DNA from: Octopus vulgaris
Taxonomy: Eukaryota
DNA: 64,000 bases
Reading direction: 5' to 3'
Assembly: GCA_951406725.2 (NCBI GenBank)
Contig: OX597826.1
Coordinates: 2,852,001 to 2,916,000 of the forward strand
In this document: positions 10,777 through 59,530 of the stretch, piece by piece
Layout of the letters: every line of letters starts with the position of its first letter
Numbering within the stretch: the first letter of the stretch is position 1
Program-made: the position numbers and the translations under genes
Notes under the pieces: generated by a model
Told to the model about the DNA's origin: nothing
Seen by the model: the letters and a program-made list of their open reading frames with translations, nothing else
Database searches by the model: none

Positions 10777-10866
10777 GTGTCGTACAATTGTTTCATGCTA
10801 CTTCATTTTATTAAACACTGTAAGTATTACATCAGTTTTAAAATGTCCAGCAATCTTCAGCTACAT
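10777..10866 (-). ncRNA. Hammerhead-like motif with long stem II insert, in PLE-type repeat (10646-11000)
   Basis: ATGTAG CTGAAGA TTGCT..~50 nt..AGCAT GAAA CAATTG TA CGACAC; paralogues at 42525-42612 and 53278-53365. Confidence 0.55.
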
Positions 10867-11084
10867 ATAGAATTTTTTAATTAAACGGACAATGCATATT
10901 CTTATACTTATTTCATTTTCCAACAATACAAATAGGGTGGATATATAGACAGAGAGGTTAATTTCATCATTAAGAACATTGTGGTAGTATGTTCTATAGT
11001 TTTGACTCTACAGTCAAAACTATTGAAAGGGTTGCAAGACGCAACGAAAAAGTTAAAAAATAAAAATTTAAAGAAAAAACAAAG

Positions 11085-11375
11085 GACACTGTCAAGGATG
11101 TGGAGACGAGTTCGGTGGGGCAGTTGCAGGTGGAGACGGCGGTGCGGGTAAGATTGTGAGGTTTGTGGATTTTGGGAAGGAAGTAAATGGTGGGCTTGCG
11201 AGAGGTGAGGACAATGAGGTTGGAGGCCTTAGGGAGGGGGAGATAGAAGGAGGAGATGACGTCATGGATAGTGGAGGACATAGTCTGTTGGTAGCTGGGC
11301 GTGGGGTCAGAGGGCAGAGGGCTGTAGAAGGAGGTGTGTTGATGTTGGCGGAGAGCATCTGCCCTGTAGAGGTCA
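11085..11375 (-). mobile_element. Penelope-like element reverse transcriptase fragment
   Basis: LYRADALRQHQHTSFYSPLPSDPTPSYQQ...IYFLPKIHKPHNLTRTAVSTCNCPTELVS matches the PLE RT motifs DPT and YxLPKIHK..RPIVS..PTE. Confidence 0.85.
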
Positions 11376-11598
11376 TTTTGTTGGGATGGTCATTTTGTTT
11401 GTTTTTGCCAACTAAACGAGTAATAAACGAGTGAGGGACAAATATAAAGTGCGTGGGTTTATTTGGCAAAAAATATCGACGCATAGACCTCCGACAGATC
11501 ACAGATACTACACACATAGCAGTAGACAGACCGAGCCACATCACACCACGTGACTAAAGAGAGAAAGGAAGAGGAAAAATAGTAAATAATACACAGTA

Positions 11599-11935
11599 GG
11601 CGTAGGAGTGGCTGTGTGGTAAGTAGCTAGCTTACCAACCACATGGTTCCACGTTCATCCCCACTGCGTGACACCTTGGGCAAGTGTCTTCTACTATATC
11701 CTCGGACCGACCACAGCATTGTGAGTGGATTTGGTAGACGGAAACTGGAAGAAGCCCGTCGTATATATGTATATGTATATATATATATGTGAGTGTTTGT
11801 GTGTCTGTGTTTGTCCCACCAACATCGATAGAATAAGTACTAGGCTTCCAAAGAATAAGTCCTGGGGTCGATTTGCTCGACTAAAGGCGGTGCGCAACAT
11901 GGCCGCAGTCAAATGACTGAGACAAGTAAAAGAAA
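11599..11935 (+). mobile_element. tRNA-SINE family A
   Basis: Head GGCGTAGGAGTGGCTGTGTGGTAAG (box A), body CACCTTGGGCAAGTGTCTTC..GGATTTGGTAGACGGAAACTG, tail GTCAAATGACTGA..GTAAAAGA; about 12 copies in the window. Confidence 0.9.
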
Positions 11936-12649
11936 AAAAGACACATACAGGGTAATACACACACAATAGACATATATACCCTTACCTGTGATACATATAA
12001 GAAATAGCGATAGATATATAAAAAAAAATATGAATAAATATATAAATATATAAATAGACAAACAAATAGATAAATATGTTTCCCACATACCTGTGAGGAA
12101 TACAAGGTATAGAGATAGATGAACTATAAATAATAAAAAAAAATAAATCCATATAAAGAGCATGGATAGAAACAGCACACGAAGCTAACGCATACACACA
12201 CTCAAGAAATTTCACGGACGGCAACAATAGCATCAATAACATGAATAACAACAACAGAAGCAGCAGCGGTGGCAACGATGGCAATAACAAAAACAACTAC
12301 CAGAAAGGCAACACCGTGGTCGAACACACAAACACAGAGGGAAACAGGAACTGTACCAAGTTTCCGGTCCTAACACAGCAGCAGCACAATGGGGTGAAGG
12401 AGAGGTCATACTGCTGTTAACAACAGTGACACACACACACAAGCACGCATATACACAATACACAGAAATGCACACAGACACAGACGCAAATGCATGCGCA
12501 CATAAGCATACACATCTTAGAAGAACAAAATAGAGCAGCTGGAGGAAGATCACACACGAAAACGAAAAGTCTCGCTGAAGCGGTCACGGATGTGTACGAA
12601 CAATTTCCGGACAATGGACATGAATTAAGATAAAAATAAAGAACAGTAA

Positions 12650-56154: not shown

Positions 56155-56196
56155 GCTACATTGACAAGGGGCAATACCCCGAAACGCGTCTGTAGC
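56155..56196 (+). ncRNA. Hammerhead motif, U3-A8 core variant
   Basis: GCTACA TTGACAA GGGG CAATA CCCC GAAA CGCG TC TGTAGC; predicted cleavage after C56190 (GUC). Confidence 0.8.
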
Positions 56197-57229
56197 TGTC
56201 GGACTGGCAGTGTGAAGCGGCTGACCTCCCTTGTTCGAAGGTTATAATGGATACAGATCGTGTATCAATAGCTATCTTGATGGCGGTGGCCTCATGGAGC
56301 TGACCATGGCAGCGATTATTCTTATATCTATAAGAATGCCATATTAATATGGCGATAACAATTAATTTATTATATATATATATATATATATATATATATA
56401 TATATATATATATATATATATATATATATATATATATATATATATATGTATGTATGTATGTATGCATTTATGTATGTATGTATATATGTATGTATGTATG
56501 TGTGTGAGTGTGTATGCGGAGAGAGAGACGCGTCACTCACACAAGTCAGACATCGAAAATGGAGATGAATATTAGAGACTCCATAATTTAGTACATGTGT
56601 GTGGAGAAGAGATCTACATCTATACTCGCATGCATACCAAAAGAAATATGCATTCGCCTGTGTTTGCAAGCCTTTCTCCCCATCTTCTTTTACGCCCGTA
56701 AAGGAAAGAAAATGGATTGCAAAAATATATATTCACTAATGTGTAATAATGTTTTATATTCATGTTCGCCTATGTCTATATTAGTATTTCATTAGTATTA
56801 CCACTGATAACATCTATACATAAGGGATTGTGTGCAATTTGTCAGATATGTCACGAACATTTGTGTGAAAATGGGTTAAGGAAATACAAATAAATTAATA
56901 TAGCACGAAATGTTTTGAGGTTACACTTATATTTGTATTGATTACAAAGATGTAGAAGTAGTAGTAGCAGTAGTGGTAGCAGCAGCAGCAGCAGTAGTGG
57001 CAGTAGTAGTAGTTGTAGTTGTAGTAGTAGTAGTAGTAGTAGTAGTAGTAGTAGTTGTAGTTGTAGTTGTTGCTGATGTTGTTGTAGAGATGATGATGAT
57101 AATAATGATGATGATGATGATGATGATAATGAGGATGATGATAATGAGGATGATGATGAGGATGATGATAATAATAATAATAATAATAATAATAATAATA
57201 ATAATAATAATAATAATAATAATAATAAA

Positions 57230-58305
57230 AATAATCATGGAACATACCATCCGAAAGTTGCTATCAACCGGCTGCACATGAGGAGAGACTAGCGTGGAAG
57301 AAGCTTATTGGCAGTAGAAGAATGTGTACAGATGGAAAGAAAATAAATGTCTAGGAGCATATTTACAGAGCAGCACAGAAAAACTACTAAACTCAGTTAA
57401 TAATGAACAAGTGGTGAAGTGTGTGATAGGAGAAAAGGAGAAGAATGAAATACTAAGAGAGCAGGGGTCAGAGAGATCGAGGAGAAACCTCTGCATGGTC
57501 AGATTGGGAGAACCACTGCAGACGTATGAGGATCAAAGTTCTGAGTTTGGTTAAAAAAAGGGGCAATTAAAAAAAGAAATAGAGAGCGATGAAAATAGCA
57601 AATAAATATATAAAGGGATAAAAATAAACAACTTAAGAAAATATATATGGGGAGAATAATTCAGAAGAATGTAGAGCCTGTGGAAATTGGAAAGAGACAG
57701 TGGCACACATTGTGGAAGAATGCCCCAAGTTGGCATTAAAAGAGACTAAGAAATGGAGGTACGATCAATTTGTAAAAGTTATACACTGGAAACGGTACTA
57801 GAAATGGGAATTTGAAGCTGGATACACATGGTATAATCATCAAGTAGAAGGAGGACTTCGTTTTTGTTCCTTCTCGAGCCATGCCTGGCTCATAAGGCCG
57901 GTTTCCCGTTTTATTGGCGTATAGGTTCCCCACCTGGACGGGACGCCGGTCCGTCGCAGGTGAGCTGCAAGATGCAGGAGGAAAGAGTGAGAGAAAGTTG
58001 AGGCGAAAGAATCAGCAGAAGTTCGCCATTACCTTCTGTCGGAGCCGCGTGGAGCTTAGGTGTTTTCGCTCATAAACACACGCATCACCCGGTCTGAGAT
58101 TCGAACCCGCGATCCCTCTACCGTGAATCCGCTGCTCTAAACACTAGGCCATGTGCCCCCACTATAAGAAGGAGGATTAGAATCGGTGATATGTGAGAAT
58201 GTGTAGGACTCACCAATTCGAACATACAAGAAGTTAGAAAAGGATAGACCGGATATTATAATCATAGATAAGGTGAAGCGAAGTTGCTTACTTATCGACC
58301 AGGCT
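57230..58305 (+). mobile_element. R4/Dong-type LINE 3' fragment interrupted by a SINE
   Basis: HGTYHPKVAINRLHM, EKPLHGQ, ECRACGNWKETVAHIVEECP (CCHC) and DRPDIIIIDK (RLE); it starts directly at an (AAT)n tract. Confidence 0.85.
57856..58166 (-). mobile_element. tRNA-SINE (family C-related head) with a 10-bp TSD
   Basis: TSD AGAAGGAGGA at 57846-57855 and 58167-58176; head TGGCCTAGTG..GGGTTCGAATCT. Confidence 0.85.
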
Positions 58306-58850
58306 CGTAAAGCGTTAGAAGCTTTGCAAAGGCAATGATAACAATAATATTAATAGTGTCTCCGCTGTGCTGCATCTGCAGTAGAGTGGACGAAACCATT
58401 GTCCATATCACGAACGAATGCCCTATTCTTTCCCTAAACCATTAAAAGATGTGACGACACTATCAGGTAGCGAAAGTGCTACACTGGAAACTGCGAAAAG
58501 CGGGGTTTAAAGAGAGGCAAGGCGTGGTATGAGCTTAAACCGGAGAGAGGTGGAGTCTGAGACTAGCAAAATCCTTTGGGATTTCCCAATCCAAACAGAT
58601 CAGGCGCTAGAGCATTACCGAGCGGACCCAGTGGGGGTGGACAAGGTGTACCACATATGTTATGTAGTTGATGTTGCATGCCCCTTTGACCCACGAATAA
58701 TCACGAAGGAAGGCGAAAAGATGAATAAAAACAACACTCTTCAGGTGAAGATATTGCCAATTATTGTTGGGTCCTTGGGAACAGTATCAAAAGACATTAA
58801 AGTGAATATAAAGGAGATTTGAATAGTGTCCAGTAGAACTGTTTCAAATT
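58306..58850 (+). mobile_element. Second R4/Dong-type LINE fragment
   Basis: DETIVHITNECP..RHYQVAKVLHWKL..KILWDFPIQTDQ..VVDVACPFD..PIIVGSLG. Confidence 0.85.
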
Positions 58851-59247
58851 TTCTTTTTTGAGTCCTTTAGACTAACCAGAATTATTAGGAAATTATTAAA
58901 TAACTTATAAGAATGGATTGCACGGCATTGTAGACGGCAGATAGCAAGCCTGCTAGGCGTGTAAAACTCCAGGAGGTCCACAAAACGTGTGATAAAGAGA
59001 AATGATAATAGCTACTGTAATAAAAAGACCGCTTTGCCACGAGGCTAGCAATAGAACGCCAAATAAAGTTAGTTAAAAGTTTCTTCTTCCACTTTTTCTT
59101 GTTTCTCTTCTCCAAATACGCATGTATATATATATGTATGTATGTATGTATGCATGTATATATATATACATACATACGCACATATATACATACATATATA
59201 TATATATATATATATATATATATATATATATATATATATATATATAT

Positions 59248-59530
59248 AATTGCAGCGTGGAAGGTGCTTACAAGCCATTTAAGAAACACACAAAACCGTT
59301 AGATTCACTTCAACATTTAAATTTAATTTGTCAAAATATCTTCGTCGCGACCTGTTCACTGACAAATCTTCGTGCTGCATCGTGAACAAATAAAATTCAA
59401 ATGTTGAAGTGAATCTAACGGTTTTGTGTGTTTTTTAAATGGCTTATAAACACCTTCCACGCTGCAATTGTTTTCGTTCCAGCACACGATCTCAGATCAA
59501 GTCACTTGCTATGCAAGTACATCTCCGTAA
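59248..59530. mobile_element. Inverted-arm element with a central G3-C8 hammerhead-like motif (59327-59366, -)
   Basis: Arms 59248-59325 and 59390-59469; TTTGTCA GTGAACA G GTCGCGAC GAAG ATAT TT TGACAAA; (TA)n on both flanks. Confidence 0.65.

Follow-up and report, generated by a model that had tools for sequence, protein, structure and literature searches.

Hammerhead-type motifs in ten repeat families of a 64-kb Octopus vulgaris window and their link to Penelope-like elements

Results

Hammerhead-type motifs in the window

The window under study is a 64-kb stretch (contig OX597826.1, positions 2852001-2916000) of the 2.80-Gb Octopus vulgaris assembly GCA_951406725.2. It is microsatellite-rich and has a GC content of 24-39%. 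A preliminary description of this DNA had listed 16 sites of minimal type I hammerhead ribozymes (HHRs) in about nine repeat families. In this study, we found hammerhead-type motifs in ten families. Two of these, C and J, are terminal repeats of Penelope-like elements (PLEs) with intact reverse transcriptase (RT) and GIY-YIG domains; the others probably represent stubs of such elements or non-autonomous versions derived from them, and reverse transcription that aborted has likely left most copies as dead by-products. We hold this explanation as a whole with high confidence.

Homology to family seeds showed that each of the 16 coordinates falls where stem I ends in a repeat copy from an HHR family. 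The sites belong to families A (10777, 42525, 53278), B (12720, 17516, 47424), C (13443), D (27119), E (27395, 28118), F (30337), G (35090), H (50572), I (55805, 56155), and J (59327). The same homology revealed another family G copy at ~35127-35205 (+), giving 17 copies in the window. The features are as follows.

10777-10866, minus: family A HHR with a helix II of ~59 nt, an intact core, and a decayed stem I; element ~10630-10986
11082-11374, minus: isolated PLE RT fragment, 79% (nucleotide) and 69% (amino acid) identical to a family C element, unjoined to an HHR
12720-12765, minus: family B minimal HHR with a single stem I mismatch; element ~12664-12860
13443-13480, minus: family C HHR-like motif with a U6 core, in a terminal PLE stub (13362-13502); copies with intact RT and GIY-YIG lie elsewhere
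17516-17560, minus: family B HHR with a damaged helix II; element ~17455-17572
27066-27154: family D short inverted arm, belonging with the HHR at 27119
27119-27169, plus: family D HHR, descriptor-positive; helix III of 4 bp with an 8-nt loop, U-U at the base of helix II
27395-27443, minus: family E HHR with a decayed helix II, in the left arm (27312-27697) of a head-to-head pair
28118-28166, plus: family E HHR with a broken core (U3-G8, A15.1G), in the right arm (27922-28250)
30337-30397, plus: family F HHR, descriptor-positive, with two G-U pairs in stem I; element ~30297-30588
35090-35130, minus: family G HHR with an intact core, the 5' arm of stem I lost at an inversion junction; element ~34980-35125
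35127-35205, plus: family G second arm, decayed; missing from the preliminary description
42525-42614, minus: family A HHR with a long helix II and a mutated 5' arm of stem I; element 42375-42805, with shared sequence extending ~800 nt upstream of the element
47424-47469, plus: family B minimal HHR, descriptor-positive; element ~47325-47532
50572-50623, minus: family H HHR, intact, with an 8-nt palindromic helix III; element 50459-50659
53278-53366, minus: family A HHR with a long helix II and decayed stems
55574-55969, minus: family I left arm, ~1.1 units of a 362-nt retrozyme-like repeat; U3-A8 HHR at 55805-55846
55963-56367, plus: family I right arm, ending in (TA)n; U3-A8 HHR at 56155-56196
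59248-59381, minus: family J stub of the G3-C8 core family; HHR ~59327-59365, with loop II and A15.1 lost in this copy
59386-59548, plus: family J inverted 5'-truncated arm with a longer 3' tail and no HHR core

The core letters, read in the ribozyme sense, were retained in 13 of the 16 sites. The core was broken at 28118 and at 59327 (A15.1G, loop II deleted), and U6 at 13443 is the normal state of family C. We applied a strict type I descriptor that required a Watson-Crick 3-8 pair, stem I of at least 4 bp, stem II of at least 3 bp, GAAA, UH, and a helix III that was a palindrome or a stem of at least 3 bp. Six of the 16 sites passed (27119, 30337, 47424, 50572, 55805, 56155), and there was no match elsewhere in the window. 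The stems had decayed in the seven other failing sites, while other genomic copies of families A, B, D, E, G, H, I, and J passed. All 16 sites therefore stand as HHR-family copies by homology, but most are decayed. The term minimal suits some of them, such as family B, but not family A with its ~59-nt helix II or families D and F with a helix III of 4-6 bp. Family H is young, with 97-99% identity among its top copies.

Motif density in the window and in the genome

In local dinucleotide shuffles of the window (n = 100), the descriptor matched 0.23 times on average and at most twice, compared with six matches in the window. A narrower first version of the descriptor (four window passes versus a shuffle mean of 0.57) was dropped as overly strict. 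Density in the genome was examined in a random sample of 100 blocks of 10 kb (999,900 bases), the positions of which were drawn inside lower-bound lengths of 30 large contigs, with some distal ends and all small contigs left out. In this 1 Mb, 34 motifs scored 9 or more (bootstrap 21-48) in 24 of the 100 blocks, whereas five shuffles averaged 0.8, an excess of ~40-fold. When decayed copies were included by homology, the count was 90 (68-114) in 50 of the 100 blocks, from 26 families, and two shuffles gave 0. Extrapolated to 2.8 Gb, these counts correspond to ~90,000 intact-looking motifs (60,000-130,000) and ~250,000 copies in all (190,000-320,000), the latter a lower bound because families known only as decayed copies have no seed. 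One motif per 4-5 kb had been proposed earlier. The window has about one per 4 kb, but across the genome the mean spacing is ~11 kb for all copies or ~30 kb for intact-looking ones. At 17 copies per 64 kb the window is ~3 times richer than the genome average, partly because its own families supplied the seeds.

Clustering of 168 distinct descriptor matches from ~1.9 Mb of fetched sequence yielded 30 families, 20 of which were present in the random 1 Mb. Since 14 of these 20 occurred there as single matches, further families remain. The idea that many HHR-bearing PLE or retrozyme lineages have colonised this genome is thus borne out.

The motifs might instead be chance matches in hairpin-rich repeats such as miniature inverted-repeat transposable elements (MITEs). 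The strict descriptor is failed by 10 of the 16 window copies, and J and G copies resemble fold-back elements. However, failing families A, E, G, J, and B have descriptor-positive copies elsewhere, fold-back junctions vary between copies, and the motif is positioned after PLE open reading frames (ORFs), as described below. The shuffles and this ORF linkage refute the chance reading, to which we give almost no weight. Family J was likewise rejected as a MITE, because its fold-back junctions differ from copy to copy and because of its ORF link.

Families C and J are terminal repeats of Penelope-like elements

The RT fragment in the window, used as a query, gave 150 scored matches, many within open frames of 700-1200 aa. 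The family C motif was at an element end in 12 of 12 fetched ORF loci, with ORFs of 776-1214 aa. Family C elements with both ends had a period of ~4.5 kb. Their flanking direct repeats were 99.3-99.8% identical in five loci and 98.7, 95, and 82% identical in three more. The family C ORF matched RVT_1 above the cut-off and GIY-YIG weakly (E = 0.005, below the cut-off). The fragment itself had been reported as PLE RT, which is correct, but it is an isolated 295-bp piece that is discontinuous with the HHR at 10777 and does not share an insertion with any HHR.

For family J, tracing longer copies upstream reached a GIY-YIG C-terminus, and this C-terminal piece gave 150 matches with 81-100% identity. 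Each of the three long loci had an ORF (755-1025 aa) that stopped ~1.0 kb upstream of the motif, and two of the three had inverted arms sharing 96-99% identity. The motif was also found in 7 of 12 short GIY-YIG loci. The family J ORF matched GIY-YIG above the cut-off, carries YVDD and DKSG motifs, and has homologues named as RT-domain proteins; the domain search gave no RVT_1 match for it. The J and C proteins were 22-25% alike. The closest database protein to one retroelement of this genome, with 54% identity, was labelled Octopus vulgaris. A CX3-4CxxC linker is present in both ORFs, and linkers of this type are common to the Neptune and Nematis clades (PMC8557442; published work is cited here and below for portions of its text). 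Both families have the single ORF with RT and C-terminal GIY-YIG of endonuclease-positive (EN+) PLEs. The direct repeats of C, the inverted arms of J, and the two 3' ends have the form of EN+ PLE pseudo-long terminal repeats (pseudo-LTRs). The PLE or retrozyme nature proposed earlier is supported for three window families, two being PLE terminal repeats with intact ORFs and one (family I) a tandem retrozyme-like unit.

In one large sequencing run, the summed contig depth over the last 200 nt of J was ~100 times that over the J ORF; this ratio does not measure copy number but agrees with a large excess of terminal stubs. Three runs that were guessed to be RNA also contained J sequence, but this does not show that J is expressed. 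A 3.6-kb repeat at locus L323 was rejected as a J element, being a segmental duplication.

Seven window families are PLE-like by insertion anatomy alone, and for these (A, B, and D-H) we infer a PLE origin. Attempts to link families A and D to ORFs failed. The sequence at 43440-43760 upstream of A is an unrelated repeat resembling a long interspersed nuclear element (LINE); a 3' end of such a LINE-like repeat, with 24 genome matches, lies at 43460-43690 (-) and adjoins the family A element. Upstream of the family D motif, ~850 nt of a microsatellite-rich tract (24550-27120) is common to other D copies; the tract may be part of a long microsatellite-filled untranslated region (UTR) like that of family J.

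Core variants and helices

The 30 families found with the descriptor have the type I hammerhead core with a Watson-Crick 3-8 pair. Among the 30 representatives, this pair was C-G in 23, U-A in 6, and G-C in 1, while N7 was U in 13, A in 10, and C in 7. The U3-A8 pair is listed as a natural core (PMC3088659). Helix III was an exact palindrome in 20 of the 30 families. In 18 families the helix II region spanned 10-27 nt; in the other 12 it spanned 44-70 nt, and most of these fold as long interrupted hairpins.

Family J is the sole G3-C8 family and the commonest, with 14 copies, 7 of them intact, per random Mb. Its G3...C8 core was unchanged in 95 of 104 copies, and variation was concentrated in loop II. 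We searched metagenome contigs for relatives of the J protein and found 26 loci, 12 of them with downstream DNA. When stem I was allowed to be as short as 3 bp, 4 of these 12 loci had a C3-G8 HHR (scores 8.9-13.5) lying 120-400 nt after the ORF, with stems unlike those of J, and none of the 12 had G3-C8. Since four relatives carry C3-G8 and none carries G3-C8, the swap in J is likely a derived, compensated change. In four metagenome contigs (L350, L353, L355, L362), PLE ORFs had canonical minimal hammerheads directly downstream; these contigs are likely eukaryotic DNA in environmental samples.

Family C, with 13 copies per Mb, had CUGU-N-GA in 35 of 41 copies, including intact young elements. 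Every base occurred at its N7 (U in 16, A in 9, C in 5, and G in 5 of 41 copies, the U class being inflated by targeted young elements), while adjacent core letters were at least 90% fixed. Judged by its sequence, family C is HHR-derived, but it lacks the conserved A6 of type I hammerheads and is a putative member of that class. In family G, many copies (loci L116-L135) had C at core position 4, as did single copies in two other families (L164; L220). This C4 is tentatively a further natural core variant.

No hammerhead was found among the 150 of 473 Rfam matches listed for the window, where microsatellite-miRNA matches swamped the scan, and Rfam hammerhead models gave no match at gathering score in 8 loci picked from HHR families. 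A repeat search of the window was swamped by microsatellites in the same way, except for the family I inverted repeat. A CUGANGA descriptor would miss J, C, and I, and Rfam missed every tested locus; therefore, published hammerhead counts are probably underestimates.

Insertion anatomy

In families A, B, and D-I, the 3' ends lie in (TA)n or (CA)n. Most families have two classes of 3' end, at +86-91 and at +143-145 or beyond in J, ~+118 and ~+197 in H, +83-88 and +110 in C, and +38-43 and +125 or beyond in G. Among the 90 random-sample copies, 18 had an inverted partner within 1 kb and 12 had a tandem partner. Inverted arms were arranged head-to-head. Marks of this kind, including (TA)n flanks, are seen in most copies; they match the PLE insertion marks described in PMC8557442, for which PMC11167929 offers two internal RT start sites as the explanation.

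Family J also had a fixed 5' start at -58 to -61 in 25 of 73 pieces, after a CTAAC / pyrimidine / AG signal. This signal may mark a splice acceptor or, alternatively, the point where transcription begins. Contigs of four runs showed no canonical splice joint at this start, although contigs cannot exclude splicing. The start, ~60 nt before the predicted cut, is visible at loci L161:4040-4080 and L347 ~6400-6440. Fixed starts just 5' of the ribozyme seem to be present also in H (~-81) and G (~-38).

Cleavage or a retained fold

Several observations weigh against our favored explanation or against cleavage by these motifs. No ORF link was found for A, B, and D-I in the fetched flanks (~1.5 kb for A, B, and D-H); this absence proves little for A, B, and D-H, because the link of J itself needed longer copies. 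The 5' ends were not piled at the predicted cut, lying within 3 nt of it in 2 of 242 copies (seven families) and 2 of 73 J pieces, so the insertions record no cleavage; BLAST ends are approximate, some piles are the end of the reference copy, and loci from full-length queries are biased. Truncation at the cut site was accordingly rejected as a cleavage fossil. The number of palindromes in part reflects the descriptor itself, in which helix III qualifies either as a palindrome or as a stem of at least 3 bp. Position 17 is mostly U in families C, J, and B. Changes of A6 are reported to have low activity (A6C; PMC3088659), and a C3G/G8C swap gave only partial rescue (PMC11167929). Within-family covariation of the stems had been expected, but in 16 family J copies 97.9% of cells were paired with 0 two-sided changes. 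Covariation may lie instead between families and between related elements: the stems are wholly different between families and between J and its relatives, but they were found by a pairing descriptor.

Some of these points would suit a different reading, in which C and J, the most successful young families, keep the hammerhead fold for a structural purpose close to where RT starts, either to bind the PLE protein or to let the RNA dimerise, with catalysis reduced or lost. U6 is near-fixed in family C even in young elements with intact ORFs, the H17 position is U in C, J, and B, and 5' ends are absent from the cut site. HHR mutants had no effect on insertion in vitro (PMC11167929), and Naiads spread without canonical HHRs (PMC8557442). 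On the other hand, J has exchanged both partners of the catalytic 3-8 pair in a compensated way and kept the other core letters, as expected if the chemistry still matters, while C3-G8 is kept in most families and the known active U3-A8 accounts for the six families noted above. We consider this structural reading less likely than not.

Under the explanation we favor, aborted reverse transcription of PLE templates, the PLE protein would nick AT-rich or (TA)n DNA, as the anatomy and published PLE biochemistry suggest. Reverse transcription would then begin ~40-200 nt downstream of the HHR, at either of two fixed sites. It would mostly end within a few hundred bases and would often add a second, inverted, 5'-truncated arm. 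Since this start is shortly 3' of the HHR, even abortive insertions of 150-250 nt would tend to include it, and the density could thus be explained without a function for inserted copies. The inserted copies would decay, and selection would be limited to the source elements. There the fold would be selected, as the free N7, the compensated 3-8 pair, and the palindromic helix III suggest. The source-element HHR is predicted to cut slowly as a dimer via the palindromic helix III, probably aided by the PLE protein as in other PLEs (PMC4209133; PMC11167929), and slow cutting is likewise predicted for the unusual cores of C and J. The templates inserted would have been mostly uncut RNA. Two internal RT start sites, AT-rich nicking, a protein-assisted HHR, and uncut RNA as the main substrate are reported in PMC11167929.

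The function of PLE hammerheads has been called unclear (PMC8557442), and cleavage was dispensable in vitro (PMC11167929). We tentatively propose, at somewhat less than an even chance, that few known genomes match this one in hammerhead density (~30 intact-looking motifs per Mb, at least 30 families); that its two commonest PLE families, both recently active, use cores excluded by standard descriptors (compensated G3-C8, ~40,000 copies; U6, ~36,000), which either cut or keep the fold for a non-catalytic job at the RT start; and that the third of the families whose helix II measures 44-70 nt constitutes a class not described before. If the G3-C8 and U6 cores cut, the natural catalytic core is widened; if C and J do not cut, PLEs keep a hammerhead fold for a non-catalytic role at the RT start. 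Dozens of parallel families, young intact sources, and natural core changes (G3-C8, U3-A8, U6, possibly C4) can be compared within one genome. The HHR also lets many short fold-back repeats annotated as unknown, or as resembling short interspersed nuclear elements (SINEs) or MITEs, be classed as PLE products.

Family I and tandem units

Family I is a tandem unit with a period of 357-362 nt in four loci and a GC content of 42%. The unit is strongly self-paired (minimum free energy (MFE) -135.5 kcal/mol, z = -7.8), and its core is the already known variant U3-A8. In the window, it forms an inverted pair flanked by (TA)n. With its ~300-400 nt non-coding, self-paired tandem unit and type I HHR, family I resembles a non-LTR retrozyme. 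Tandem HHR repeats were also seen at loci L213, L233, L219, and L156, with periods of 352, 547, 560, and 361 nt, as further retrozyme-like families.

It could be proposed that most families are such retrozymes, spreading via self-cleaved circular RNAs, rather than truncated PLE ends. The 362-nt unit of family I, in which no ORF was found, its folding z-score, and the other tandem families with periods of 352, 547, and 560 nt would agree with this, and retrozymes are probably PLE-derived (bioRxiv 10.64898/2026.07.22.740005). However, just 12 of the 90 random copies had a tandem partner, the two commonest families (J and C) are ORF-linked PLE ends, and copies end at fixed points that are neither random permutations nor the cut site. 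We therefore regard a retrozyme origin for most families as improbable.

Comparison with known systems

HHRs in PLEs, in large numbers and as heterogeneous families, are already known, and the scale, the family richness, and the two ORF-linked non-canonical cores appear to be the new aspects here. Small PLE-associated hammerhead variants with a short helix III and dimer cleavage were reportedly described by Lunse, Weinberg, and Breaker (RNA Biol 14:1499). Our literature search, with subscription papers outside it, found no octopus HHR families, no comparable density, no high-copy natural G3-C8 or U6 cores, and no long-helix II class, some of which Lunse et al. may cover.

Cervera and de la Pena (2014; PMC4209133) described massive, heterogeneous minimal type I HHR families in metazoan PLE pseudo-LTRs. 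The octopus motifs share with these the type I topology, the extra base after A9, the palindromic helix III, and the U3-A8 variant, and likewise occur as many families per genome, mostly in single truncated copies, with opposite-strand pairs 100-700 bp apart. The largest counts there are ~9,000 (Xenopus) and ~4,000 (coelacanth), versus ~90,000 here, a rough comparison as the descriptors differ. G3-C8, U6, and a 44-70 nt helix II are unmentioned in the portions of that article drawn on, and the terms Octopus and G3-C8 are absent from two of its supplements.

Like EN+ PLEs of the Neptune and Nematis type (PMC8557442) and Poseidon PAc (PMC11167929), the octopus elements have a single RT and C-terminal GIY-YIG ORF, a CX2-5CxxC linker, (TA)n targets, partial tandems, an inverted 5'-truncated arm, and an optional 3' tail. 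They differ in having non-canonical HHR cores in recently active elements and a 3' UTR of ~1 kb or more, microsatellite-rich in J. Family I and the other tandem families resemble non-LTR retrozymes (PMC7229834; bioRxiv 10.64898/2026.07.22.740005) in their ~350-560 nt non-coding, self-paired units, whereas most octopus copies are dispersed or inverted rather than tandem. The axolotl has 126,247 motifs in two retrozyme families (PMC7229834), a total comparable to that of the octopus, but in ~28 Gb (~4.5 motifs per Mb), versus at least 30 families and ~33 intact-looking motifs per Mb here. The bioRxiv preprint derives retrozymes from PLEs. In O. vulgaris, a recent curated repeat annotation counts 31 PLE families as recently active (PMC13282606), and a term search of its main text found neither "ribozyme" nor "hammerhead". 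Additional context is given in PMC7151607 and PMC6765202.

Other features of the window

A 5S rRNA-like sequence at 2255-2370 (+), directly 3' of an (ATA)n run, scored 78 bits, above the gathering score. It is probably a pseudogene or a 5S-derived repeat. The sequences at 44455-45197 (+) and ~60748-60988 we take, from their translated motifs, to be broken remnants of mariner/Tc1-type transposases. The translation of 58511-58822 (+) is a fragment that presumably resembles the nuclease region at the C-terminus of non-LTR retrotransposons.

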